From positions 92,288-156,287 of the forward strand of contig JAPDLS010000001.1 in NCBI GenBank assembly GCA_025920425.1: DNA of 64,000 bases, written 5' to 3'. A program made the position numbers and the translations under genes. Under the pieces are notes generated by a model. It searched no databases, was not told where the DNA came from, and saw only the letters and a list, made by a program, of their open reading frames with translations. This document shows, piece by piece, positions 16,322-61,524 of this stretch. The stretch comes from Candidatus Haiyanarchaeum thermophilum (GTDB taxonomy: Archaea > Nanobdellota > Nanobdellia > JAPDLS01 > Haiyanarchaeaceae). How positions within the stretch are numbered: position 1 is the first letter of the stretch; each line of letters starts with the position of its first letter.

Positions 16322-17764
16322 TTAACCTTTGACCACACCCAGTGGTACTAGCCTAGCCACCAATTTCCCAATTCCAGCCCTATCACTTACAATGGCCACC
16401 TCATCTATATCTTTATATGCCCCTGGGGCCTCTTCTGCCACGATCTCCCAAGAAGCAGCCCTCACCAATATTCCCTTCCTTTCCAATTCTTGAGCAATTT
16501 CCTTCCCCCTGAACTTCTTTATTGCAGCATTCCTACTCATTTCCCTTCCAGCACCATGAGCAGTGGAATAAAAAGTTTTCCTTGCCTCAGGATTTCCAAC
16601 TAGAACATAACTTGCTGTGCCCATACAACCCGGAATTAGCACTGGTTGACCGGTTCTCCTATATTTTTGAGGCAAATCCTCACTTCCTGGGGGAAAGGCT
16701 CTAGTGGCTCCCTTCCTGTGCACGAATACTTTAACTTTCTCACCATTTACTTCATGATCTTCAATTTTCGCTATGTTATGTGCCACATCGTAGACTACTT
16801 GCAACCCCAAGGCATCCGGTTCCTTTTCAAATACTTGTTTGAAGCTTTCCCTTGTCCAATGCAAAATCATCTGCCTATTGCACCAAGCATAATTAGCTGC
16901 CGCACACATTGCAGCGAAGTAATTTTCAGCTATTTCACTTTTGGAAGGAGCATAAACCAGCTCTCTGTCAGGAAGCTTAGCTATCACTTCATGATATTTC
17001 CTCTCCATCTCTCTCAAGTAATCAGAACATACTTGATGCCCTAAGCCCCTCGAGCCTGTATGGATCATTATCATCACTTGTCCCTCTTCCTCTATTCCAA
17101 ATACTTTAGCTACTTCCCTATTGTAGATTTTGTCCACCTTTTGAACTTCTAGGAAATGATTTCCAGCCCCCAAGCTTCCAAGCTGGGGTAAACCTCTACT
17201 CTTAGCGGTGCTAGATACCTTTGATGGATCTGCTTGAGACATCCCTCCATTTTCCTCAAGATGCTCGAGATCCTCCTTCCAACCAAATCCATGCTCCACA
17301 GCCCACTTAGCTCCGAGCTGGAGCACTTGATCTAGTTCAGTGGAAGATACTCTTATCTTCCCACCCTTCCCCACACCAGATGGTATATTCCTAAAGATGA
17401 TCTCAAGCAATTCCCTAAGCCTAGGGCGGACATCTTCTTCTCTTAAATTACTTCTCACTAGGCGGACTCCACAGTTGATATCATACCCTATTCCTCCTGG
17501 GCTAATACAACCTTCCTCATAATCTATAGCTGCTACCCCTCCAATGGGAAAGCCATAGCCCTCATGACCGTCAGGTAAAGTAATGGAGTATTTGTAGATT
17601 CCAGGCAAACATGCAACTCCAGCAGCCTGAATCAAAGTCCTATCCTGCTTCATTTTCTCCAGAAGCTTAGGACTAGCTATGATGAGGGCTGGTACTCTCA
17701 TTCCCGGAATACTCCCTTTAGGAATTTCCCACTCTATGTCGCTTATTTTCTTGAGCTCAACCAT
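16322..17764 (-). CDS. rtcB: RNA-splicing ligase RtcB (3'-phosphate/5'-hydroxyl ligase), no intein
   Basis: Conserved RtcB blocks GYDINCGVR, GAGNHFLEV, HTGSRGLG, STAHGAGR in a 480-aa protein. Confidence 0.9.
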   Translation of the reverse strand: MVELKKISDIEWEIPKGSIPGMRVPALIIASPKLLEKMKQDRTLIQAAGVACLPGIYKYSITLPDGHEGYGFPIGGVAAIDYEEGCISPGGIGYDINCGVRLVRSNLREEDVRPRLRELLEIIFRNIPSGVGKGGKIRVSSTELDQVLQLGAKWAVEHGFGWKEDLEHLEENGGMSQADPSKVSSTAKSRGLPQLGSLGAGNHFLEVQKVDKIYNREVAKVFGIEEEGQVMIMIHTGSRGLGHQVCSDYLREMERKYHEVIAKLPDRELVYAPSKSEIAENYFAAMCAAANYAWCNRQMILHWTRESFKQVFEKEPDALGLQVVYDVAHNIAKIEDHEVNGEKVKVFVHRKGATRAFPPGSEDLPQKYRRTGQPVLIPGCMGTASYVLVGNPEARKTFYSTAHGAGREMSRNAAIKKFRGKEIAQELERKGILVRAASWEIVAEEAPGAYKDIDEVAIVSDRAGIGKLVARLVPLGVVKG

Positions 17765-17796: not shown

Positions 17797-18249
17797 TTAG
17801 ATATCTAACACTACATGAACGTAGAATTTTCCATCCTTTTTGCCAACTCTCATGCCATGATAGGTCACAGCTTTAACTACAGCGCGTCCTCTATGTTTCC
17901 TTGGATCGAACTCTTCTCCGAGCAGCACAGCAGAGACCTTAAGCTTATTTCCCTCCTTCCATATTTTAGATACCTTCACTTCAGAGAAGAATATATTTTC
18001 CGAATCATTGATGATCAGAATTTTTTCGAGGAAATCGTACAGAAGACTTTCATTATCTTCCCCTTCTGCTACGATTTCCCTCCTCACCTTCTTCTCTACT
18101 TCATGCAGATCAATCATTACGCTTTGCATAGCTATAGCTGCCCTCTCAAAGGCCTGCTCGAGAGAGTTTCCAAGAGCTTCGAATTCGACATCTGCTGTGT
18201 GTTCCAGAAATTTTATGTACTTAGACTCCATTTTTATATACGAAGACAC
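17797..18249 (-). CDS. archease (RtcB activator)
   Basis: N-terminal FLEHTADVEF and C-terminal KAVTYHGMRV archease signatures; directly upstream of rtcB on the same strand. Confidence 0.8.
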   Translation of the reverse strand: MSSYIKMESKYIKFLEHTADVEFEALGNSLEQAFERAAIAMQSVMIDLHEVEKKVRREIVAEGEDNESLLYDFLEKILIINDSENIFFSEVKVSKIWKEGNKLKVSAVLLGEEFDPRKHRGRAVVKAVTYHGMRVGKKDGKFYVHVVLDI

Positions 18250-23689: not shown

Positions 23690-24829
23690 CTATCTCGTAA
23701 CCTCAAGCTCCCGCATTTCTTCTAAATATTTCTTCCCATTTCCTTCTAGGAAATATTTTCTGGCCGGTTCTAAGATCTGAATGAGGTAGTTAGCAACAGT
23801 ATCCTTAAGATCCATTGGATGAATTTTTCCTTCCATGTATTCCTTCTCCAAATCTCCAAACACTTTGAATTTCTTCACACCTCCTTTCTTTAAATTCTTA
23901 ACTTGAAACTCTTCCTCTCTTCTACTTAACCATGGAAATATGATATGCTGGGCAATTTCCACTATAGGATTCAACTCAATCTCATTAGGTGGGCAGAAGG
24001 CGCTGCGAATTTTTTTTCTTATCTCCTCCTCACTATCATGGATAAATATAGCACTTTGAGGTCTAGACTTGGACATCTTAATATCTATAATACTCTCTTC
24101 AAATGTTTTCCTATCTCCTCTCTTTCTCGCTTCCAAGATTTTCCTTCTTTGCTCCTCGCTTACATGGATTCCCATTAGAAGATGATGATGTACTGCAACA
24201 GGCTTATATCCAAATTCTTTCCATACTTCAATAGCAATTACATGAGCCTTTCTTTGATCAAGTCCTCCATGAGCCAAGTTTACCCCTAAGCTGAAGATAT
24301 CTGCTACTTGCATCGGTACGTAAATCAACTGGGCAAAGTCAAGTTTTTCCCCCATTTTTCTTCCCATTATTGTTATGCTCCTCATAGCCCTTCCCAAACT
24401 TATTTTCTCACTTACCTTAATCACATTTTCTAGATACTTGAGGCCAAGTTTCCCATAAAATTCAGAGCCTAAGATGAATTTAGTCTTGCTAGGGTCTCCT
24501 CCAATACATTTTAATGAAATCTTGAGGGCTTCTTGGAAATATCCTCCAGCCACTTTTTTGATCACATCCAAATTTCCATTTAACTTCTTGTTGATCCAAG
24601 AATGGTAATCAGCCAAAAATATGGCGGTCTCAATTCCAGCCTCTTGAAAATCTGCCACTTTCCTAAGAGCTACGAGCCCCAAGCCTATATGTACTTCTCC
24701 AGAAATTTCAAACCCTATGTAGTGCCTCAATCTTTCTTTCTTTTCTAAGTATTCTAGTAATTTTTCCTCAGTTAGGATTTCCACAGTAGGAGGCTTCTTG
24801 ATTAACTCCAACATTTCGTGCCGATCCAT
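23690..24829 (-). CDS. tyrS: tyrosyl-tRNA synthetase (class I), divergent, with insertions
   Basis: KMSKS motif present; blocks YVPMQVADI...GGLDQRKAH and HPMDLK match archaeal TyrRS; likely start at the second Met (MDRHEML). Confidence 0.8.
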
Positions 24830-24886
24830 CGATATCACTTTATTCCTCAATTTTTATAAAGTTATTCCTATCAATTAAGATTAGTA

Positions 24887-25810
24887 ATGCAACTCATCGA
24901 TCTGGTGTGTATAGGAGATATTACTTTAGACATAGTTTCATATCCCCTCAGAGACTTTCCCAAGAAGGAGGAAGAGATCTCAACGCACGAGGAGATAAGA
25001 TTCCAAATAGGAGGAGGAGCAGCGATAGCTGCCTGTTCAGCTTCTTCGCTAGGTTTGAACACTGTGCTCTTGGGTTGTGTAGGTAGGGATTGGGCAGGAG
25101 ATTTTCTATTGAAACAAATCGGGAAATGGGGGGTGAAGTGTGAAGTGCGAAGGAAAGAAGTGAGTACAGCGAAAAGCATAATAATCTCGTTTGAAGATGG
25201 TCTTCGCAGCATCATTAATTATGCCGGGGCCAACGCACATTTAGCTTTGGAGGATCTCAATCTCAGCATCTTGAGGAGAACTAAGAACTTGCTCCTTTCA
25301 GGAGTTTTTCATTTGAAGAGATTAAAGAGAGATCTATGGAAGATTCTTAAGCTAGCTAAACAGAGTGGAGCCCATACTTTTATAAATCTCTCCACTGTTC
25401 GAACTGGAGCAAGCTATCTCTCTAAATGCTTAAGTTATATAGATTTCATCTTCTGCACTCAGAGAGAGCTTCATCTGCTTCTCAAGGAAATTTCAATTCC
25501 TAACGTTAGAGAGGTCTTCAGAAGGTATCCTATCACCCTAGTGATTCATCTAGGCAAAAAAGGAGCAGTGCTTCTGAGTAAGGACAAGTTGATCAGGCAG
25601 AAAAGTATTAAAGTCAAATCCCTCAATCCAGTAGGTTCAGGGGATGTGTTCAATTCAGCATTTATCTTAGCGATGCATAGAGGATTCAGTTTTGATAGGG
25701 CATTGAAGTTTGCCACTGCCTCAGCAGTCACATATCTTATGAAACCTGCTCAGCAATTTAGTAACTTTGAGGAAGTGAAAAATTTCGAGAAAAATTTTAA
25801 TCAAATCTAG
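24887..25810 (+). CDS. PfkB-family carbohydrate kinase (ribokinase-like)
   Basis: N-terminal GG motif (IGGGAAIAA) and C-terminal GSGDVFNSAF anion-hole motif. Confidence 0.7.
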   Translation: MQLIDLVCIGDITLDIVSYPLRDFPKKEEEISTHEEIRFQIGGGAAIAACSASSLGLNTVLLGCVGRDWAGDFLLKQIGKWGVKCEVRRKEVSTAKSIIISFEDGLRSIINYAGANAHLALEDLNLSILRRTKNLLLSGVFHLKRLKRDLWKILKLAKQSGAHTFINLSTVRTGASYLSKCLSYIDFIFCTQRELHLLLKEISIPNVREVFRRYPITLVIHLGKKGAVLLSKDKLIRQKSIKVKSLNPVGSGDVFNSAFILAMHRGFSFDRALKFATASAVTYLMKPAQQFSNFEEVKNFEKNFNQI

Positions 25811-25824
25811 TTCCTATAAAAAAT

Positions 25825-27690
25825 ATGTGGGAAAATATCTTTTTGATCGAGGTATCCTCTGAAACCGCCAGAAAGATAGGTGGAATTTATACTGTGCTTA
25901 TGAGTAAGTCTCACAGAATAGTAGAGATTTTCAAACAAAACTATCTCCTAGTTGGACTCTATGATCAATATGTTGGGAAAGGTGAATTCTTTGAAGAACA
26001 ACCTCCTGATGAAACTCTAGCCAAGATTTTTTCCGAATTGAAGGGTTTGGGAATTAAATGTTATTATGGGAAGTGGATCGTTGGAGGGGATGCTAGGGTA
26101 ATCTTGATTGAGCCTAGTGAGTTTGGAGAGAAAACAGTAAATGGGGAAAAGCAGATTAACTTAATAAAATATGAGTTGTGGAAGGACTTTGGAATAGATT
26201 CTCTCTTCATGGGGTGGGACTTCAATCGTAACGTATTATGGGCATATGCTGCTGGTATACTGATAGAGAAGATAATTAATTCCTATCCCAGTTTTAAATT
26301 CATAGTTCACTGTCATGAATGGATCTCAGGAGCAGCGCTCCTCTATTTGAGGAAGAAGAAGGTAAGAGCCTCCCTCATATTCACAACTCACGCTACCTCA
26401 TTAGGGAGGGCGAAAGTGGCTGCAGGAGAGGATTTAATCAAAGAAGTAAATGAGGGAATTAAAAGTGGTAAGACAGTAGATGTTCAGATAGCATACAGGT
26501 TCAAATTAGAGGGCCAGCATCTACTCGAGAAAGCCTGTGTAAATCACTGTGATGTGTTTACCACTGTGAGCGATGTAATAGACAGAGAGGCTGAATACAT
26601 GTTCGGTAGGAAGAGCGATGTCATCACTCCAAATGGAATAGATTTCAATAGGGTACCAAATGTAGGAGAGGTCAAGCATATAGCTAGGAGTGCTAGAGAA
26701 GAGGTGGAAAAATTATGTTATGCTATATTTCTTCCTTACTATGCCATTCATCCAAAAGATTCTCTATTTATCTATCTCTCCGGGAGATATGAGATGTATG
26801 ATAAGGGGATAGACCTCTATATCAAATGCCTAGCCAAGTTGGATGAACTCCTGAGAAAAAAACAAATTATAAAGGACATTTTTGCTTTCATCTTCGTACC
26901 TACTAGCATTACTAGACCAAATGAAGATATCTGTACTAATCTATTGATAGTAGATAGGATGTACGATTTGTTTAAGTCATATAGGATAGATCCCGAGATC
27001 CTCTCAGATTTCAATGAAGTTACCAAATTTCTAGCCGAATTTTCTGATGGGAAGAAAGTAGATATAAGTAAATTCTCTCAGTTTTTCCTAGATTTGCCCC
27101 AAGATGTGAAGATGGAAGCTGTGAAGCTCTATAAAAACTTAAGAAAATCAAATTCCAATCCTCCAATTAACTGCTTCCTCCTCACTTATCCAAATGACCA
27201 AATACTCAATCTTCTCACTTCTCTTGGCTTAGTAAATAGCCAATTTAATAGGGTGAAAGTGATATTTTATCCTACTTATCTCAGGCCAGGAGATGGGCTC
27301 CTCCATATGGAGTACTGGAAAGTGATCAGCGCCTTTGATCTGGGAATTTTTCCCTCCCGCTACGAGCCTTGGGGTTATACTCCTGTAGAAGCAGCTACAA
27401 TGCTAAATTTAGCTATGACTACAGATAAGGCAGGATTCGGAAGGTATATTCTCGAAAAATTTGGGGAGAAGTTGAGCATAGCAGTAATTCCTATGGTAGA
27501 TAGGAGTGAAGAAGAAGTAATTGAGTGGATGACTCAGCATGTGTTAAAGATATTGAACTTGAGTAGGGAGGAACTAGAACTGCTGAAGGAAGAAGCTAGA
27601 AAAATAGTAGAAAGTTGTGATTGGAGTACTCAAATAAATAGCTATCTCAAAGCATATGAGCTGGGGTTGAGGAAGGTTGAGGGAAAATAA
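25825..27690 (+). CDS. eukaryote-type glycogen (starch) synthase, glycosyltransferase family GT3-like
   Basis: Block-by-block resemblance to animal/fungal glycogen synthase: KIGGIYTV, HCHEW, FTTHATSLGR, TPNG, RVKVIFYP...FPSRYEPWGYTPVEA. Confidence 0.75.
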   Translation: MWENIFLIEVSSETARKIGGIYTVLMSKSHRIVEIFKQNYLLVGLYDQYVGKGEFFEEQPPDETLAKIFSELKGLGIKCYYGKWIVGGDARVILIEPSEFGEKTVNGEKQINLIKYELWKDFGIDSLFMGWDFNRNVLWAYAAGILIEKIINSYPSFKFIVHCHEWISGAALLYLRKKKVRASLIFTTHATSLGRAKVAAGEDLIKEVNEGIKSGKTVDVQIAYRFKLEGQHLLEKACVNHCDVFTTVSDVIDREAEYMFGRKSDVITPNGIDFNRVPNVGEVKHIARSAREEVEKLCYAIFLPYYAIHPKDSLFIYLSGRYEMYDKGIDLYIKCLAKLDELLRKKQIIKDIFAFIFVPTSITRPNEDICTNLLIVDRMYDLFKSYRIDPEILSDFNEVTKFLAEFSDGKKVDISKFSQFFLDLPQDVKMEAVKLYKNLRKSNSNPPINCFLLTYPNDQILNLLTSLGLVNSQFNRVKVIFYPTYLRPGDGLLHMEYWKVISAFDLGIFPSRYEPWGYTPVEAATMLNLAMTTDKAGFGRYILEKFGEKLSIAVIPMVDRSEEEVIEWMTQHVLKILNLSREELELLKEEARKIVESCDWSTQINSYLKAYELGLRKVEGK

Positions 27691-29632
27691 GAAATGTTAC
27701 CTAATTGCTGGTAATGAATGTTTTTTGCTTAGATTTACCAATACTTTTTTCGGTTCGAAATGGTTTGGAATTTGGTTTCCCCCGTATAAGTTCCTGGACT
27801 ACTTTGCTTATAGGATCACTCATGGCAATGATACTTTCTGGTTGACTAAGGATACACAGGAGCATTTTACATACCTCCCAGATATGGCGAAGCATATATT
27901 CAAGTATAAATCCCACGTAATCTTGGAAGAGGTCTATCCCACTATCGGATCGGGAATTGTAAGTGAACTAAAGTGGCTGGAGAAACCGGAGGGTGAAATA
28001 GAAGTTTTCTGTGAGGTAGGAGTGAACTTAAGAAAGTACTATGAGGATTTCTCATCTAATGATGTGAAGGTGCAGGAAACCGAAAATGGATTTAAGATAT
28101 ATAATTCTACTGTGAATTTCTTGTTAGGTTGTGACCATAAATTGAGAATCAATAGAGGCTTCTGGAAAGAACATTTTCCAGGAGATTATGTAAGAGATTG
28201 GATGTTCTTCAATGAGGTACCTCAGAGATGCTTCGTAATAGAATTGTCAACTGGACTGAAGGGGAATTCGATTAAATTTTTATTCTCAAGAGACGGAAAG
28301 TGGGAAAAACTTGAAAGGAAGGTGGAAGTAGATGTAGATCAAACCTATGAAGAAATTCTAAGAAGCTCTCTACTCTCTCCATCCATTTTCAAGCAAAGCT
28401 ATGATGGAAATTTTGGATATGTGGCAGGATTTCCATATTTTTTGGACTTCTGGGTAAGAGATGAATGTATAAACATCCAGAACTTCTTATTCCTCGGAGA
28501 ATTTCAAAACATAAGGAAAGCGCTTGAGAAGCATATCAAGATGGAGAGAAAAGGGACCATTCCTTTTCTGATAAGGCATAATGGCCAGATATTGTATCAC
28601 TCAGCAGATACAACCCCCCTCTGGCTTATCACCCTTTTTCATTACCTCAAATTTACGAATGACTGGAAGTTTTTGGCAGAATATGAGGATAGGATCAAGA
28701 ATTGTTTATTTAGTTTCTTTAAGCTGGATGAGGATGACGATTATCTCGCAGAATGTAGAAATCTCCTCAGCTGGATGGACTCAATAAATAGAGAGGGAAA
28801 ACCAATCGAAATCCAAGCTTTATGGGCAAAGGCTTTTCTCGAAGCCTACGATTTATTTGAGGAAAAATGGTTAAGAAGCATTGGAGAGAAAATTCTAATG
28901 CAAATTGAAAAGTTCTATCATGAAGGATTCTACTGGGACAGATTGGTAAACTCTTGGAAAGGAATGGGGAGAAGTTCCAATCCAGTTTGGCTCACCTTCT
29001 ATAAGTTACTAAATAAGCAAAGGGCTGAACAAATCTTAAATGTGTTGGAGGGGGAGGAGTTTACTACGAGGAGAGGCATAAGGAGCTTTTCTACTCAGGA
29101 TCCTCACTTCTCCCCGAATTCTTACCACAGAGGAATGGTATGGAACTTGCTCACTAACCTTATGATCATCTCTGAGTTTAATTATGGAAGGGTAGAAAAA
29201 GGTTTCAAATATCTAGAGTTACTCCTTCAGAACTACGGAGCTCGGTGCATGGGGAGCTTGGATGAAGTGTATGATGGTAATTTATCTCCACAAGGGGCTC
29301 TCTCCCAAGCTTGGAGCATTTCATTCATTCCAAGAATATTTTACGAGTTTATTCTTGGAATAAGGCCGAACACCTTTGAAAAAATTATTACTATGGCTCC
29401 GATAGATCAAGATAAGGTGAAGAGATTTTCTGGCAAGTTTAGGGTGGAAGACAGAGTGTTTGAGATTAAGTTTCGAATAGATAGGGAGGGAAGAAAAGTG
29501 TTCAGGATCCTAGAATTTCCTGAGGATTACAAATTACTCCTTACACCTCCTTCTCAAAAATTTTCAGTGAATCACGATATTTATACTGAGAAAGCAGTTT
29601 TGGAAGGGAAATATTTTGAAATTAGATATTAA
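27677..29632 (+). CDS. glycogen debranching enzyme-like protein (amylo-alpha-1,6-glucosidase C-terminal domain, GH133-like)
   Basis: Catalytic-domain blocks FLDFWVRDE and GALSQAWS; start overlaps the glycogen synthase gene by 14 nt. Confidence 0.55.
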   Translation: MRENKKCYLIAGNECFLLRFTNTFFGSKWFGIWFPPYKFLDYFAYRITHGNDTFWLTKDTQEHFTYLPDMAKHIFKYKSHVILEEVYPTIGSGIVSELKWLEKPEGEIEVFCEVGVNLRKYYEDFSSNDVKVQETENGFKIYNSTVNFLLGCDHKLRINRGFWKEHFPGDYVRDWMFFNEVPQRCFVIELSTGLKGNSIKFLFSRDGKWEKLERKVEVDVDQTYEEILRSSLLSPSIFKQSYDGNFGYVAGFPYFLDFWVRDECINIQNFLFLGEFQNIRKALEKHIKMERKGTIPFLIRHNGQILYHSADTTPLWLITLFHYLKFTNDWKFLAEYEDRIKNCLFSFFKLDEDDDYLAECRNLLSWMDSINREGKPIEIQALWAKAFLEAYDLFEEKWLRSIGEKILMQIEKFYHEGFYWDRLVNSWKGMGRSSNPVWLTFYKLLNKQRAEQILNVLEGEEFTTRRGIRSFSTQDPHFSPNSYHRGMVWNLLTNLMIISEFNYGRVEKGFKYLELLLQNYGARCMGSLDEVYDGNLSPQGALSQAWSISFIPRIFYEFILGIRPNTFEKIITMAPIDQDKVKRFSGKFRVEDRVFEIKFRIDREGRKVFRILEFPEDYKLLLTPPSQKFSVNHDIYTEKAVLEGKYFEIRY

Positions 29633-29937
29633 TCAGTGATCTCTATCTCCATGTGAACATCCTTTGGTACAGGAATCCTCATAATGAGTCTAAGAGCTCT
29701 CTCATTCAAATTGAGGTCTATTGTCCTCTTATGGATCCTGAGCTCCCAAGTCTCATATAATTCCCTTCCTTGCCCACAGGGAGAAGTTCTTACAGGGACC
29801 TTCAATCTTTTAGTTGGTAGAGGAATTGGCCCACGCATATCTGCCCCTATCTTCTTCACAATATCTTTAATTTGTTCACATACCTCATTTAATTTCTCTA
29901 TATTCGTACTGCTCAGTTTTATCCTGGCCCTAGGCAT
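29629..29937 (-). CDS. rps10: 30S ribosomal protein S10 (uS10)
   Basis: 102-aa S10-like sequence (ARIKLSSTN...GPIPLPTKR). Confidence 0.85.
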   Translation of the reverse strand: MPRARIKLSSTNIEKLNEVCEQIKDIVKKIGADMRGPIPLPTKRLKVPVRTSPCGQGRELYETWELRIHKRTIDLNLNERALRLIMRIPVPKDVHMEIEITD

Positions 29938-29986: not shown

Positions 29987-30724
29987 TTACCTTAGGAAGA
30001 TCCTGATATTTTCTTGAAAGACTTTCTCATTATCTCCAATAGCTCTTTCTACACTTAGTATGGAGGCTTGATAAAAATCATCATCACACTGAAGTCCGAA
30101 ATCGCTTTCAAATACTACCATATTTTCCAGTCCATCCTCCATAGCTTTAGCTACCTTCTCATTTGGTATATAAAAGAGGAAGTTTGAAGGGGAAGTTCCT
30201 AAAAGGAGGTTTCCTTCCAATCTTCTAAGTTGTCTAGCATTAATTTCAGTAAGATAATTGTAGAGAGCATCTACTCCATGCGCTACATAGATTAAAGCAT
30301 CATATTCCCTAATGTATCGGGAGAGTATCTCTAGGAACTCCTTAGTGAAATAATGACCATGAATTTGGATTTTTTTGAAGTTTTGAGAAAGAGCATCTTC
30401 GATCAAGTTTACCTTTTTCATATAGGGATGTATATCATCAGCCCCTATCTTAACGAACTGAAATTTGGAGATTTTCTTCAATTTTCCTATGTTTTCTCTA
30501 GGCGTGAGATAAATGCCAGGATAAATATATGGTGCTTTTTCCAGTATAGCCTTAACTAATGGTAAGTTTGGAGGAATGAAAATGCCTACGATCTTATCGA
30601 TGTTATACCTTTTTCTGATTCCTCCCACTCGTTTTAGGTCCTCATCTAAACTAATATCCATACTCCACCCGGGAACTAATCTCGGAGCTGGGTAATGGAA
30701 ATGAAAGTGCCCATCGTTGATCAT
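29987..30724 (-). CDS. metal-dependent hydrolase, amidohydrolase/TIM-barrel family
   Basis: N-terminal DGHFHF metal-binding motif and FESDF near the C-terminus. Confidence 0.45.
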   Translation of the reverse strand: MINDGHFHFHYPAPRLVPGWSMDISLDEDLKRVGGIRKRYNIDKIVGIFIPPNLPLVKAILEKAPYIYPGIYLTPRENIGKLKKISKFQFVKIGADDIHPYMKKVNLIEDALSQNFKKIQIHGHYFTKEFLEILSRYIREYDALIYVAHGVDALYNYLTEINARQLRRLEGNLLLGTSPSNFLFYIPNEKVAKAMEDGLENMVVFESDFGLQCDDDFYQASILSVERAIGDNEKVFQENIRIFLR

Positions 30725-51036: not shown

Positions 51037-52053
51037 GTGACTAGAATAAGCATGTACTTTAAATTAAATGAGCTTGAGAAAGTGGTGAACACAAAAGTAT
51101 ATGACGAAATTCATAAACAGGAGATTGAGAGGACGATCATTTTCAGAGAGAATCCAATTTTCATGAGCAGGGCCAGAATTGAGCCATCCAGAGAAGAGAG
51201 GAAAATAGAGACAGATTTTGCCTATCCTATTAAGGTGAAGGAGGAAGAATGCTTTTTCTGTCATCCCAATGAAAAATGCTCCAAGTTCCGGCATGAAAAT
51301 CTGAGCCCTATTTATTTTCTCAACGAGAGTGTTGTATTCTCTAACCTTTATCCTATAGATGAAATAATGGGGGTAGTGGTTTACGATTATAAGAGACATG
51401 TAGTCTCTCCGCTTGAGCTGAATTCCTCTCACTGGAGGGATGGATTGTTGTTAGTAAAAAAAGTGTTCGAGAGTTCTGGTAAAAAGTATGTATACAATCA
51501 TCTCAACTTTGGACCAAAGTCAGCAGCCTCAATTGAACATTTCCATGGCCAGTTTATCTGTAGTAATTACGAAAGCATACTCACGAGCAGAGTGAGGGAG
51601 AATGCGAGGAAGTTAGAAGTAAGTCCAAGGCTAGCATTAAAATCTTGGATTGAGGCGCTTGATGAAAAGGGATTAATACTAAAGCGAGATGAGAATACTA
51701 GCACTTATCTCTTTGTAGAATGGGCTCCAGTATTTGGTAAGAGTGAGCTGGTAATTACCTCCACTTATCATTCTAACTTAGGGGAGATGGAAGATTTAGA
51801 AATTCAGAAGGTAGCTGAGTTCTTAGAGCTTGGTAGTAAACTTTTTTTTACTCATGTGAGCAATCAATTTACCATAATCAATGTAGCCTCCTTCAAGTCC
51901 GATGAGTTCTGCAATCAGTTTAGGATAGTAGCAAGAGCCCCCTTAGAGCAGGGGATGAAGAGTTGGGAGGGTTTCTTAGAGCTTTCGGGGGAAAGTGTAC
52001 CAAATATACTACCAGAAGCTTTGGCTCAAAAATTGAAGAATGAATTACGTTAA
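51037..52053 (+). CDS. galactose-1-phosphate uridylyltransferase-like nucleotidyltransferase (HIT superfamily)
   Basis: N-terminal CFFCHP zinc-type motif and HFHGQ active-site-like motif. Confidence 0.5.
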   Translation: MTRISMYFKLNELEKVVNTKVYDEIHKQEIERTIIFRENPIFMSRARIEPSREERKIETDFAYPIKVKEEECFFCHPNEKCSKFRHENLSPIYFLNESVVFSNLYPIDEIMGVVVYDYKRHVVSPLELNSSHWRDGLLLVKKVFESSGKKYVYNHLNFGPKSAASIEHFHGQFICSNYESILTSRVRENARKLEVSPRLALKSWIEALDEKGLILKRDENTSTYLFVEWAPVFGKSELVITSTYHSNLGEMEDLEIQKVAEFLELGSKLFFTHVSNQFTIINVASFKSDEFCNQFRIVARAPLEQGMKSWEGFLELSGESVPNILPEALAQKLKNELR

Positions 52054-58354: not shown

Positions 58355-58453
58355 TGGGCCCGGTGGGATTTGAACCCACGACCTACGGTTCTCTTAGATG
58401 TGCGGAACTCGGTCTTATAAGACCGTCGCTCCACCAGGCTAAGCTACGGGCCC
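58355..58453 (-). tRNA. tRNA-Ile with predicted anticodon UAU and a 25-nt intron at position 37/38
   Basis: Acceptor GGGCCCG/CGGGCCC, discriminator A, anticodon stem ACGGT/ACCGT, 5-nt variable loop; intron has a perfect CUUA/UAAG central helix with 3-nt bulges, leaving loop CUUAUAA. Confidence 0.7.
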
Positions 58454-58487: not shown

Positions 58488-59465
58488 TTACTCAAGTCTA
58501 CATTCATAGATCGTCTTATCCTCCCTAATCCTCAAAAATACTGGAGCCCTCAATTTCTTGTCCTTTGTAATTTCCATGCATTTCACCTCACATATATATC
58601 TTGGCTCAACGAAGACCATCTTTTCAGCCATGTTTGGTTCCTCTTCGAAGATCTCAAATGGGTTTTTATCGATTGTAATTGGTTCGAGCATTTCTTTGAG
58701 CTTAGCTAGATCACTCTCACTAAAACCGGTTCCTACTCTCCCAACATATCTCAGCTTTCCCTCATCCAAACATCCGAGCACTAGGGCTCCTAAGTATTTC
58801 TCCCGAATCCCTTCTCCTCTCGTAAAGCCACAGATCACACAGTCCACAGTCTTCGTAGCCTTTATCTTAAGCCAGTACTTAGATCTCTCTCCAATCAGAT
58901 AGGGACTGTCTATCTTCTTAGCCATTATTCCCTCGAAACCTTTCTTTGCCACTTCTTCAAAAAATTTGATCCCACCTCCTATTATGAATCTCGTAAGCTT
59001 CACCCTTTCTCCTTCAGTTACACATTCTCCTAAAATTCTCTTCCTCTCGATAAGTGGGAACTCAAGGAGAGATTTTCCATCTTTATAGAGAATATCAAAT
59101 ATGAAGAGGGTAGCCGGGCTCAATTTGGAGAGAAGTTCTATCCTTAGCTCATCACTTGTGTGTTCCCTCTCCTGCAATTTCCAAAAGTTTGGCTTCTCCC
59201 CATCCAGCACTACGATTTCTCCATCTAGAATTCCTTTATTTCCTAGGAAGGCATTAGGAAGCTCTTTTAATATTTCTGGATATCTCTTCTCAAAGAAGAG
59301 GCCTCTCCTATTGAGGAACTTAACTCTTTCCTTCTCTTTATCTATGTATACGATGGTTCTAGTTCCATCGTATTTTATTTCAAATAAATACTGCTCAGAA
59401 TCAAAAGGCCTAGCTGAAAATGCTAGCATTGGCTTTATCTTCTGATCGAAAAGATCTCCTTCCAT
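58488..59465 (-). CDS. ATP-dependent DNA ligase, small LigD/LigC-like ligase domain
   Basis: Motif I KxDGxR (EIKYDGTR) in a protein of only 325 aa; immediately downstream of the Ku gene. Confidence 0.75.
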   Translation of the reverse strand: MEGDLFDQKIKPMLAFSARPFDSEQYLFEIKYDGTRTIVYIDKEKERVKFLNRRGLFFEKRYPEILKELPNAFLGNKGILDGEIVVLDGEKPNFWKLQEREHTSDELRIELLSKLSPATLFIFDILYKDGKSLLEFPLIERKRILGECVTEGERVKLTRFIIGGGIKFFEEVAKKGFEGIMAKKIDSPYLIGERSKYWLKIKATKTVDCVICGFTRGEGIREKYLGALVLGCLDEGKLRYVGRVGTGFSESDLAKLKEMLEPITIDKNPFEIFEEEPNMAEKMVFVEPRYICEVKCMEITKDKKLRAPVFLRIREDKTIYECRLE

Positions 59466-60260
59466 TTAGCTGATCTGAGATACTTTCTTTTTCTTCTTTT
59501 CCAACAACTCCAAACTGCTTTTGAGAGCATCTACCAATGATTCAGTTACGATCTCTTCCTTCTCCTCCTTGGAAATAAATTCTCTCCCTTCCACCTTAGC
59601 TTTGATAAGTTCCTTGACCTTTTCACTAAATTCATCTTTAAACTTAGTGATATCGAATTCACTACTCAACTTCTGAATGAGCATTTGAGCTAACTTCAGT
59701 TCTTCCTCGCTTACCACTACCAACTGCTTCATTTCAGGAATCTCCTCCAGAGGCTTTACTTCAGAAAGATAATGAAGAATGTGCATAAGCAAACCATCCT
59801 TGTATGGCCTCAAGGCTACGAGATATTCCTTATTTCGCATGACTACCTTACCTATTGCCACTTTATTCGTAAGTCTTAGGGCCTGTACGAATAAGCTAAA
59901 TGCTTTGGCTCCTAGTTCCTGGGGCACCAAATAGTAGCTCTTCTCAAAGTAGATGGGATCTATTTGGGCTGGATCCACAAATTGTTTGATTTCTATTGTC
60001 TTTGTGGTCTTCAATTTAATCTTTTCAAGATCACTTCTTTCCACTACTACATACTGATCTTTGCTTATCTTGTACCCTTTCTTTATTTCATCCCACGAGA
60101 TCTCCCTATTGCAAACCGGGCACCAGCGTTTATGCTCTATAGGATGACCCTCCCTACAGAGATTCTTAAATTTTATGCCTGTACTCTCAGTAGCTACATA
60201 TACTTTAACCGGAATGTTGATCAGGGAGAAGGAAATACTCCCAGCCCAAATAGCTTTCAT
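59466..60260 (-). CDS. ku: Ku protein, bacterial-type (non-homologous end joining)
   Basis: Bacterial-Ku N-terminal signature MKAIWAGSISFSLINIPVKVYVA and core DPIYFEKSYYLVP. Confidence 0.8.
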   Translation of the reverse strand: MKAIWAGSISFSLINIPVKVYVATESTGIKFKNLCREGHPIEHKRWCPVCNREISWDEIKKGYKISKDQYVVVERSDLEKIKLKTTKTIEIKQFVDPAQIDPIYFEKSYYLVPQELGAKAFSLFVQALRLTNKVAIGKVVMRNKEYLVALRPYKDGLLMHILHYLSEVKPLEEIPEMKQLVVVSEEELKLAQMLIQKLSSEFDITKFKDEFSEKVKELIKAKVEGREFISKEEKEEIVTESLVDALKSSLELLEKKKKKVSQIS

Positions 60261-60283
60261 AAATGGATAGGTAAGTCCTTAGA

Positions 60284-60586
60284 TTAAAAACTTTTTGAAC
60301 CTTCAAGTGTAAGCATTTTATTCCCATTTTCCCTCTCATCTCTCCCAAAAAACTCTATGGATCTTCTAAAGATGCATTTCTTGTCGTTGCAATCCAAAGC
60401 CCTACTGCAATTGTAGTAATACTTCACATCTATCACTTTTCCCTCCTCCCTTTCGAACTTTTGCCTCGATAGATAAAGCATAGTTTCTCCACCATAAGAT
60501 GGACAGTAAAGCTTAGCCACGAGATTTGGGAGATGAAAATGGATCTCCTGCCCAAGAATTTCCTCTAACCCCTCGACAACCTCCAT
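60284..60586 (-). CDS. hypothetical Cys/His-containing protein upstream of ku
   Basis: 100 aa, co-directional with ku and separated by 24 nt; no motif support. Confidence 0.3.
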   Translation of the reverse strand: MEVVEGLEEILGQEIHFHLPNLVAKLYCPSYGGETMLYLSRQKFEREEGKVIDVKYYYNCSRALDCNDKKCIFRRSIEFFGRDERENGNKMLTLEGSKSF

Positions 60587-60609
60587 AAAAATAAAGAATA
60601 ACTCTACTT

Positions 60610-61524
60610 TTAAATCTTTATTCGCTTGAAGAGAGATGCTACTAAGATGGGAAGATTAATAGTAGCATCCCCGTAAACTACAGCCTGCTTCGCCCCCTCT
60701 TTTACCTTTCCCCAAGAAATTCCCTCCCTAGAGTGAGCTCCACTCAGGCTACCATCCCATTCAACCGCTGTACTAAGATATACCACATAGTCTAATCCTC
60801 CCTTAAACTGATTCCACCAGATCACATGATGTTTGGAAATTCCTCCCCCTATTACGAGGGCTCCGCTAAGCTTAGCTTTCCATACCAGCTCACTAAGCAG
60901 ATCTTCGTCCTTAAATTGATCTATTCTAAGTTTCTTCCCAAATTCCCAGATATGGTATCCTACAGCCCCATCTGTAAGACCAGGGATTATCATAGGTATC
61001 CTATTCCTGAAACACCAGTAAAGGATCGAGTCCTCATTTCCTATAAACTCTCCTAGTTTCCAGCAGAGCTCATAGGTGCTAAGCTCCTTATCAACCGTTA
61101 ATCCTTTGATGAACTCTCTCATCTTTTCCTCAATAATTATTCCATAGCTCTCATTTGGAATGAAGACGTTTCCCAATCTGCAAATTCCCTTCCTCCTCAA
61201 TTCAGAGTCATCAGTAAAAAAGCTCCCGTGAAAATACTCCTTGAAACTTCTAGCTAGATCATGATCAAGAGTACCACATGTGGTAATTATCACATCGAAC
61301 AATTTTCTCCTCACGAGTTCTCTTATTATTCCCCTACACCCAGTAGCTATTATGCATGCTGGAAAAGATAGAAATTTCAAGCAATCCTTTTGCTTTATCA
61401 TCTCTTCCAAAATATCTACAGCTTCTCCAAGTTCCTTTGCCATAAATCCTCCGGAAGCCTTCAGCTCCCTCAATAACTCGTCCACATCATGTTTTATCTC
61501 AATATCCTTCACTGGAATTTGCAT
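60610..61524 (-). CDS. dys: deoxyhypusine synthase
   Basis: Conserved blocks DVIITTCG, IPGLTDGAVG, GGGISKHH and DGSLSGA. Confidence 0.8.
   Translation of the reverse strand: MQIPVKDIEIKHDVDELLRELKASGGFMAKELGEAVDILEEMIKQKDCLKFLSFPACIIATGCRGIIRELVRRKLFDVIITTCGTLDHDLARSFKEYFHGSFFTDDSELRRKGICRLGNVFIPNESYGIIIEEKMREFIKGLTVDKELSTYELCWKLGEFIGNEDSILYWCFRNRIPMIIPGLTDGAVGYHIWEFGKKLRIDQFKDEDLLSELVWKAKLSGALVIGGGISKHHVIWWNQFKGGLDYVVYLSTAVEWDGSLSGAHSREGISWGKVKEGAKQAVVYGDATINLPILVASLFKRIKI

Follow-up and report, generated by a model that had tools for sequence, protein, structure and literature searches.

The window analysed here is a stretch of 64,000 nt of the archaeon Candidatus Haiyanarchaeum thermophilum (contig JAPDLS010000001.1, positions 92,288 to 156,287), to which all coordinates refer. 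It carries a compact unit of three co-directional genes on its plus strand. They encode a sugar kinase of the PfkB/ribokinase family (24887-25810, 307 aa, PF00294), a glycogen(starch) synthase of glycosyltransferase family 3 (GT3; 25825-27690, 621 aa, PF05693) and an amylo-alpha-1,6-glucosidase homolog of glycoside hydrolase family 133 (GH133; 27677-29632, 651 aa, TTG start, PF06202, GDE_C). This unit is likely to be native to a DPANN archaeon, a module for alpha-glucan (glycogen) storage that was inherited within DPANN, changed its place by ordinary rearrangement and was not acquired recently. The source organism is a DPANN archaeon, and the window carries archaeal ribosomal-protein, S12-S7-EF2-EF1a-S10 and RNA-polymerase clusters as well as intron-containing tRNAs. 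A glycogen toolkit of GT3 and GH133 enzymes has already been described for DPANN, so that the finding as such is ordinary.

An earlier note, made from the letters of this DNA, had likened the 621-aa protein to the glycogen synthases of animals and fungi and set it apart from the bacterial type. Both statements were borne out. The protein matches the Pfam model Glycogen_syn (PF05693) with E=1.4e-90 and 305 bits (gathering score 27), its residues 9-618 covering model positions 1-586 of 639. In the PDB it finds human GYS1 with E=2e-69 (residues 3-617 against GYS1 25-615 of 737) at about 26% identity, and yeast Gsy2p and C. elegans gsy-1 align similarly. An AlphaFold (AF2) model built on 31 homologs has a mean pLDDT (predicted local distance difference test) of 92 and superimposes on GYS1, Gsy2p and gsy-1 with Foldseek template modelling (TM) scores of 0.84-0.87 over about 625 aligned columns. 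The corresponding scores against GlgA of family GT5 are 0.48-0.51. The bacterial-type GT5 models miss the protein (TIGR02095: 29.3 bits, cut-off 328; NF001899: 21.2 bits, cut-off 459), and with the GT5 GlgA of Pyrococcus abyssi, similarity is confined to the final approximately 110 residues (phmmer, E=8e-5). An assignment to GT5 GlgA was ruled out by these NCBIfam scores, the partial PDB match and the low TM score. Within its GT-B fold, the model contains the inserted helical hairpin of the GT3 type (helices 367-386 and 390-407), which we take to be the equivalent of the tetramerisation domain in GYS1 and Gsy2p.

Residues E165, R321, K327, E514 and E522 align with the human residues and are invariant in a set of 31 DPANN sequences. 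E165 is the counterpart of yeast E169, the residue mutated in PDB entry 4kqm, and the E-X7-E pair E514/E522 corresponds to human E510/E518. Presumably, the glutamate equivalent to yeast E169 and the E-X7-E motif act in catalysis and the Arg/Lys pair contacts the donor phosphates. The regulatory residues present a different picture. In the regulated eukaryotic synthases (GYS1/Gsy2p type), an arginine cluster composed of R579, R580, R582, R586, R588 and R591 binds glucose-6-phosphate (Glc6P) and senses phosphorylation (PMC9287172). At these positions, the window synthase has R581, E582, L584, K588, E590 and K593, and the counterpart of His501 is Asp. Among the 31 DPANN sequences, R582 is replaced by Leu in 21, R586 by Lys in 30 and H501 by Asp in 26. 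Neither the N-terminal Ser8 and Ser11 (sites 2/2a) nor the C-terminal Ser641 and Ser645 (sites 3a/3b) have counterparts, because the alignment spans only GYS1 25-615. Since the phospho-tails, the His and the greater part of the Glc6P arginine cluster are missing, the synthase is probably not regulated in the eukaryotic manner. As judged from the alignments, the label 'eukaryote-type' holds for family and fold and fails for regulation.

Phylogenetically, the synthase belongs to DPANN. Its best 120 homologs are 36-67% identical, and their source, where named, is always DPANN (Micrarchaeota, Parvarchaeota, Aenigmarchaeota, Woesearchaeota and related groups). A 100% identical protein is deposited at NCBI as 'glycogen/starch synthase [Candidatus Parvarchaeota archaeon]', and the identical synthase was found on 14 contigs from ENA, JGI, NCBI (GCA_025920525.1) and Logan. 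In a neighbour-joining tree of 93 GT3 sequences over 580 columns, it pairs with its ortholog from the related locus L081 within a DPANN clade, at distances of 0.41-1.0 from DPANN relatives, 1.85 from the human and 1.61 from the yeast enzyme. The eukaryotic GT3 sequences join a branch of Planctomycetota and Bacteroidota. This topology, in which the synthase nests among DPANN, agrees with Fig. 6 of PMC11046441. There, DPANN are located near PVC (Planctomycetota-Verrucomicrobiota-Chlamydiota) bacteria and eukaryotes, and GT3 is confined among archaea to DPANN and Euryarchaeota. GT3 was also noted in metagenome-assembled genomes (MAGs) of Parvarchaeota (PMC7779479), and glycogen metabolism and storage have been called a 'hallmark of DPANN' (PMC7443923). 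The implied unusualness of such an enzyme in a prokaryote does not hold: GT3 is the documented synthase of DPANN (PMC11046441).

The position of the unit had been interpreted as the result of an insertion between tyrS and rps10, a site at which informational genes would normally be contiguous. Both flanks were confirmed by NCBIfam: tyrS (23690-24850, minus strand) by NF006330 with E=3e-123, and rps10 (29629-29937, minus strand) by TIGR01046 with E=3e-39. In its full form, this view supposes that the unit, ultimately of eukaryotic type, was recently inserted by horizontal transfer and disrupted an informational block. The informational genes on both sides would suit it. For comparison, 160 related loci (designated L with a number) were used, 80 GT3 loci and 80 EF-2 loci with EF-2 53-61% identical to that of the window. 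In the contig search for relatives, identity among the matches listed did not exceed 40%, and closer relatives were obtained by exact-protein look-ups. Adjacency of tyrS and rps10 occurs in none of the 160 loci, and no TyrRS is encoded within 10 kb of rps10/EF-2 in the 80 EF-2 loci or of GT3 in the 80 GT3 loci listed. In archaea, rps10 closes the S7-EF2-EF1a-S10 string, in which variable genes often set it off from EF-1alpha, and tyrS is not its normal neighbour. None of these GT3 loci and none of the 80 EF-2 loci has glycogen genes beside rps10, and this lineage-specific position would again fit an insertion.

The relative L081 stands against it. Its EF-2 and EF-1alpha are 85% identical to those of the window, GT3 67%, GDE (glycogen debranching enzyme, the GH133 gene) 57% and PfkB 45%. 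In L081, PfkB-GT3-GDE converges on rps10-EF1a-EF2 as it does in the window. The arrangement is old because the unit abuts rps10 also in this relative, at only 85% EF-2 identity. The tyrS side differs, which can be counted in favour of an insertion: upstream of the L081 unit lie a GNAT gene and then a block of deoxyhypusine synthase, Ku and DNA ligase genes (1663-5467 of L081). The window has its deoxyhypusine synthase/Ku/ATP-dependent DNA ligase block at 58488-61524, about 30 kb away and beyond the RNA-polymerase cluster. Since this block is located beside the PfkB end in L081 and some 30 kb off in the window, the tyrS/PfkB junction is a rearrangement breakpoint, and the rps10 junction is common to both. 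A pair of Ku and ligase, which is of the NHEJ (non-homologous end-joining) type, is notable in so small an archaeal genome.

Composition points in the same direction as synteny. The unit ranks 46th of 60 in tetranucleotide distance, its codon-usage distance amounts to 0.11-0.18 compared to 0.11-0.29 for other genes of the window, and neither GC content nor GC3 departs from what is typical in the window. In the list of open reading frames (ORFs), neither mobile-element genes nor flanking repeats were apparent, and the nearest GT3 homologs are all from DPANN at 38-67% identity, as opposed to about 26% for the eukaryotic enzymes. A recent foreign insertion of the unit was rejected on the grounds of composition and synteny, and the broader scenario of an incoming eukaryotic-type gene set that split a contiguous tyrS-rps10 block is highly improbable. 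Relative to L081, the actual interruption of the informational gene string is a 245-aa ORF between rps10 and EF-1alpha (29987-30724, minus strand) which is missing from this otherwise collinear relative. The ORF encodes an N-terminal HFHFH motif and has no match in Pfam, NCBIfam or PDB. In other relatives, EF-1alpha and rps10 are commonly 0.4-2 kb apart.

The product of the third gene matches GDE_C (PF06202) with E=4e-28 and 98.8 bits (threshold 21) over residues 248-551. The NCBIfam model TIGR01561 (gde_arch) gives 53 bits, which is under its cut-off. A profile of nine GH133 orthologs matches the archaeal GDE 7vma with E=2.4e-25 and the GC domain of the Candida glabrata GDE with E=5.6e-12, the latter alignment comprising the first approximately 95 residues of the GC domain. 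D368 in the motif WMD is invariant in the orthologs and E530 in LDEVYD is kept in eight of nine; they align with WKDS and PELY of 7vma. The catalytic pair of GDE is D1261/E1502 in human and D1241/E1492 in C. glabrata (PMC12219210). At 651 aa, the protein is much shorter than the eukaryotic debranching enzyme of about 1530 aa, and the Pfam search found no GH13 4-alpha-glucanotransferase or alpha-amylase domain in it. Its N-terminal domain of about 245 aa, which displays the motif SKW-G-W-PP-K-LDY, is unlike the GDE_N-type start of classical archaeal GDEs (L028, L031).

The first gene encodes a PfkB kinase (PF00294, E=7e-43, 147.5 bits, threshold 25.8) with the motifs IGGGAA (GG motif) and GSGDVF (G-x-G-D with the catalytic Asp). 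No NCBIfam equivalog reaches its cut-off; the top match is ribokinase with 99.7 bits (cut-off 299.65), followed by IolC and ribose-1-phosphate kinase, and the best PDB matches are YdjH and ribokinases. These matches could mean that the enzyme has no part in glycogen metabolism and instead serves the DPANN nucleotide-salvage (pentose bisphosphate) route by phosphorylating ribose, nucleosides or ribose-1-phosphate, the upstream position of its gene being incidental. In line with this, PfkB shows the lowest conservation among the three genes between window and L081, and it is found near GT3 only in a minority of loci. However, in no fewer than six separate loci (the window, L081, L086, L088, L013 and L024), a PfkB ortholog directly adjoins a GT3/GDE/GalT cluster. 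Furthermore, in L088 the kinase gene is a neighbour of a SIS-domain isomerase-type gene and an FBP (fructose-1,6-bisphosphate) aldolase/phosphatase gene, and the 14-nt spacing between PfkB and synthase genes in the window suggests co-transcription. On balance, a salvage kinase is conceivable but somewhat unlikely, and a role of PfkB in the glycogen module is preferred.

The spacing of the unit is as tight as first described. According to the ORF coordinates, the gap between the PfkB and synthase genes is exactly 14 nt, and the synthase and GDE genes overlap by 14 nt, contingent on the TTG start codon at 27677. With the alternative TTG at 27725, which is chosen by other gene callers, the GDE homolog would comprise 635 aa and be separated from the synthase gene by 34 nt. 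Conservation of the N-terminus in the ortholog from L081 speaks for the upstream codon. In view of the 14-nt gap, the 14-nt overlap or 34-nt gap and the common strand, the three genes are probably co-transcribed. The divergent intergenic region between tyrS and PfkB (36-57 nt) contains the palindromic TATA-box-like sequence TTTATAAA at 24853-24860, which has no strand and sits 27 nt 5' of the PfkB ATG. By its position, it may be an archaeal promoter element common to tyrS and PfkB. The sequence is not enriched in the window (three found, 3.1 expected by chance). A scan of the unit for sigma-70 promoters and intrinsic terminators yielded fewer matches than shuffled sequences; these models are of bacterial type and uninformative for archaea.

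Taken together, the three proteins could accomplish synthesis and mobilisation of an alpha-glucan. By analogy with its family, the GT3 synthase would extend alpha-1,4-glucan chains from nucleoside diphosphate (NDP)-glucose, UDP-glucose being assumed as donor. The GH133 enzyme is predicted to cleave alpha-1,6-linked stubs or branches hydrolytically when the glucan is mobilised and to release glucose, and the kinase might phosphorylate a hexose (glucose) or fructose-6-phosphate and feed it into glycolysis. All three genes would be expressed from the TATA-like element shared with the divergent tyrS. Several points weigh against this reading. No archaeal GT3 enzyme has been biochemically characterised (PMC11046441). 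The GH133 protein, which scores under the NCBIfam gde_arch cut-off, is a member of a divergent subfamily, and its gene has two candidate start codons. The kinase fits the PfkB family without pointing to a single substrate class, and co-transcription is deduced from gene spacing. Finally, a branching enzyme (GH57), a GT4/5-like partner and a nucleotidyltransferase (NTP-transferase) or pyrophosphorylase are absent from the window, and for this reason completeness of the pathway is not demonstrable from 64 kb.

The surroundings of GT3 in other genomes provide a context for this gap. Among 49 GT3 loci of DPANN and CPR (candidate phyla radiation), GH57 is located within 10 kb of GT3 in 31, GH133 in 25 and a GalT-like gene in 17, and a GT4/5-like transferase is encoded near GT3 in many. 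Planctomycetota-type GT3 genes are mostly without such neighbours. A set of GT4/5-like (sometimes split), GH57, GT3, GalT/HIT-like nucleotidyltransferase and GH133 genes recurs in varying order in DPANN and CPR/Patescibacteria (L001-L049, L086, L088, L089). In some Bacteroidales, the order GDE-GT4-GH57 precedes a long GT3 ORF of about 1400 codons. Overlap of the GalT-like gene with the stop codon of GT3 is frequent and hints at a non-classical NDP-glucose donor route. A weak candidate for a GalT/HIT-like protein is also present in the window: the 338-aa ORF 51037-52053 (plus strand) has an EHFHGQ (HxHxQ) motif and no significant Pfam match (DUF4931_N, E=0.06). Compared with the GalT-like proteins of GT3 clusters, it yields E=4e-4 with a hidden Markov model and E=0.003 with BLASTP, and it may be a divergent member of this nucleotidyltransferase group.

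The absence of a branching enzyme and a pyrophosphorylase from the window could also be read differently. The module might process or salvage exogenous or host-derived alpha-glucans or synthesize another glucoside, with GH133 acting on an external substrate and no glycogen being stored inside the cell. A precedent is Ca. Nanohalobium constans, whose debranching enzyme belongs to the secretome and supports growth on external starch or glycogen (PMC7443923). In addition, the presence of glycogen in DPANN 'remains questionable' (PMC11046441). Nevertheless, the synthase has retained all catalytic residues of glycogen synthases and the full fold, and the coupling of GT3 with GH57 branching-type and GalT-like genes in relatives suggests that the route of synthesis is complete. 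Moreover, no obvious signal peptide was seen at the N-terminus of the window GH133 protein upon reading of the translation, for which no predictor was employed. A salvage function is therefore considered improbable, and an intracellular storage module remains the favoured explanation. A more speculative idea, to which even slightly less credence is given, is that the DPANN GT3, which has no phospho-tails and little of the Glc6P arginine cluster but a near-invariant Lys at the position of Arg586, represents an unregulated, possibly primer-independent ancestor state of the eukaryotic synthase, and that PfkB-GT3-GH133 would constitute a self-sufficient minimal alpha-glucan cycle without dedicated branching enzyme or pyrophosphorylase. 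Glycogenin homologs are not known in archaea (PMC11046441).

Of greater interest than the glycogen unit is a gene in its vicinity. The EF-2 gene (minus strand) is composed of exon 1 (34301-34199), an insert of 30 nt (34198-34169) and exon 2 (34168-32100). The insert contains an in-frame TAA and splits the P-loop codons (IAHVDHGK/TTT, the slash marking the site here and below). It looks like a bulge-helix-bulge (BHB) intron, predicted from sequence and folding, in an essential protein-coding gene. RNAfold calculates a minimum free energy of -27.5 kcal/mol (z = -5.8). In the predicted fold, the outer helix pairs exon with exon; it is followed by a 3-nt bulge, the 4-bp helix AUGG/CCAU, another 3-nt bulge and a 10-bp hairpin. 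The sole strict BHB in the 113-nt EF-2 stretch has the canonical geometry with bulges on opposite strands. BHB cleavage occurs after the second nucleotide of each bulge (PMC12397907). Canonical cleavage would excise exactly 30 nt to yield the junction ...CAUGGAA/AGACCACU... in the spliced RNA, and the restored protein stretch is identical to the intact EF-2 of L081. The EF-2 stretch is identical in three of four independent assemblies compared, and the split gene call appears in all four. Two other explanations were rejected: for translational bypass, take-off and landing codons mismatch, and readthrough of the stop codon would place 10 residues inside GK/T of the P-loop. A naive scan of the whole window for strict BHB motifs with G-U pairs permitted was uninformative, with 1099 matches against about 1000 in shuffled sequences.

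Inserts at this site are found in relatives, too. Seven metagenomic EF-2 genes (53-61% identical) carry eight short inserts of 28-44 nt, often frame-shifting (L116, L127, L129, L130, L139, L153 and L161, the last with two). They occupy three sites in AH[IV]DHGKTT: between I and D, between D and H and inside the K codon. At the position that restores the frame, all but one conform to the BHB geometry (H 3-4/4, h' 4-10 bp), with a background of 0.1-0.7%. Between L139 and the first insert of L161 (L161a), a compensatory change is seen in the central (H) helix. In ten further EF-2 loci (L124, L133, L135, L137, L140, L141, L152, L166, L167 and L169), an intein is located at GK/T (AHIDHGK/C[IV]SGDT ... 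HN/TTF). Most of the apparent long EF-2 matches in relatives proved not to be inteins but the adjacent EF-1alpha GTPase domain; the true ones are those in the ten loci. The P-loop site of EF-2 is a hotspot for intron-like inserts and inteins. In the literature covered, BHB introns of archaeal mRNAs are described only for cbf5 and one 5' untranslated region (PMC7714728), and a search found no report of a BHB intron in EF-2.

The minus strand of the window encodes the RNA ligase RtcB (16322-17764) and archease (17797-18231), with Pfam calls in L082, in the interval that extends from the L3 end of the ribosomal-protein genes to the glycogen region. RtcB and archease form the machinery that ligates BHB-spliced RNAs. 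The window has seven tRNA genes, and the length of three of them (88-120 nt) would accommodate introns. For the 99-nt tRNA at 58355-58453 (minus strand), ARAGORN reports an undetermined 4-base anticodon 'aaga', and Rfam recognizes a normal tRNA with 60.5 bits. This gene probably carries an intron at a non-canonical position.

For the glycogen unit, the central observation, the joint use of a GT3 synthase and GH133 by DPANN, re-discovers a published fact and matters little by itself. A modest addition is the evidence from single residues that the eukaryotic regulatory apparatus is missing in the DPANN enzymes. Two recurrent gene arrangements are added as well, the PfkB partner in a Parvarchaeota/Micrarchaeota-like clade and the GT4/5-like/GH57/GT3/GalT-like/GH133 neighbourhood in DPANN and CPR. 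A first biochemical study of an archaeal GT3 enzyme could be guided by these points.

Compared with known systems, the synthase is closest to the putative DPANN GlgA-GT3 enzymes (PMC11046441), including those of Ca. Nanohalobium constans (PMC7443923) and the Parvarchaeota MAGs (PMC7779479), with which it shares family, clade and a length of about 600-620 aa and from which it deviates in no essential respect. The unit differs from most DPANN/CPR GT3 loci in being reduced to PfkB-GT3-GH133, without GT4/5-like, GH57 and GalT-like genes. With eukaryotic GYS1, Gsy2p and gsy-1 (PDB 8cvx, 7q0b, 3nb0, 4qlb), the synthase has the GT-B fold including the hairpin and the catalytic residues in common. In contrast to these enzymes, it has no phospho-tails and displays the exchanges R580E, R582L, R586K, R588E and R591K together with Asp for His501. 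GT5 GlgA of E. coli and P. abyssi (2bis/3fro) belongs to the same reaction class and the same GT-B superfold, but the window synthase is not a member of that family. The GH133 homolog resembles the archaeal GH133 enzyme (7vma) and the GC domain of eukaryotic GDE (5d06) in its GDE_C match and in the WMD Asp and downstream Glu at the positions aligned with 7vma. It lacks the GH13 glucanotransferase domain of the bifunctional eukaryotic GDE and has an N-terminal domain distinct from that of archaeal GDEs. GH133 is widely distributed in archaea, and a Sulfolobus mutant of 'GlgX' accumulates excess glycogen (both cited in PMC11046441). As in bacterial glg operons (glgBXCAP), genes for synthesis and debranching are combined in one co-directional unit. 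Unlike these operons, the window unit employs GT3 in place of GT5 and GH133 in place of the GH13 enzyme GlgX, and it comprises PfkB instead of glgC, glgB and glgP.

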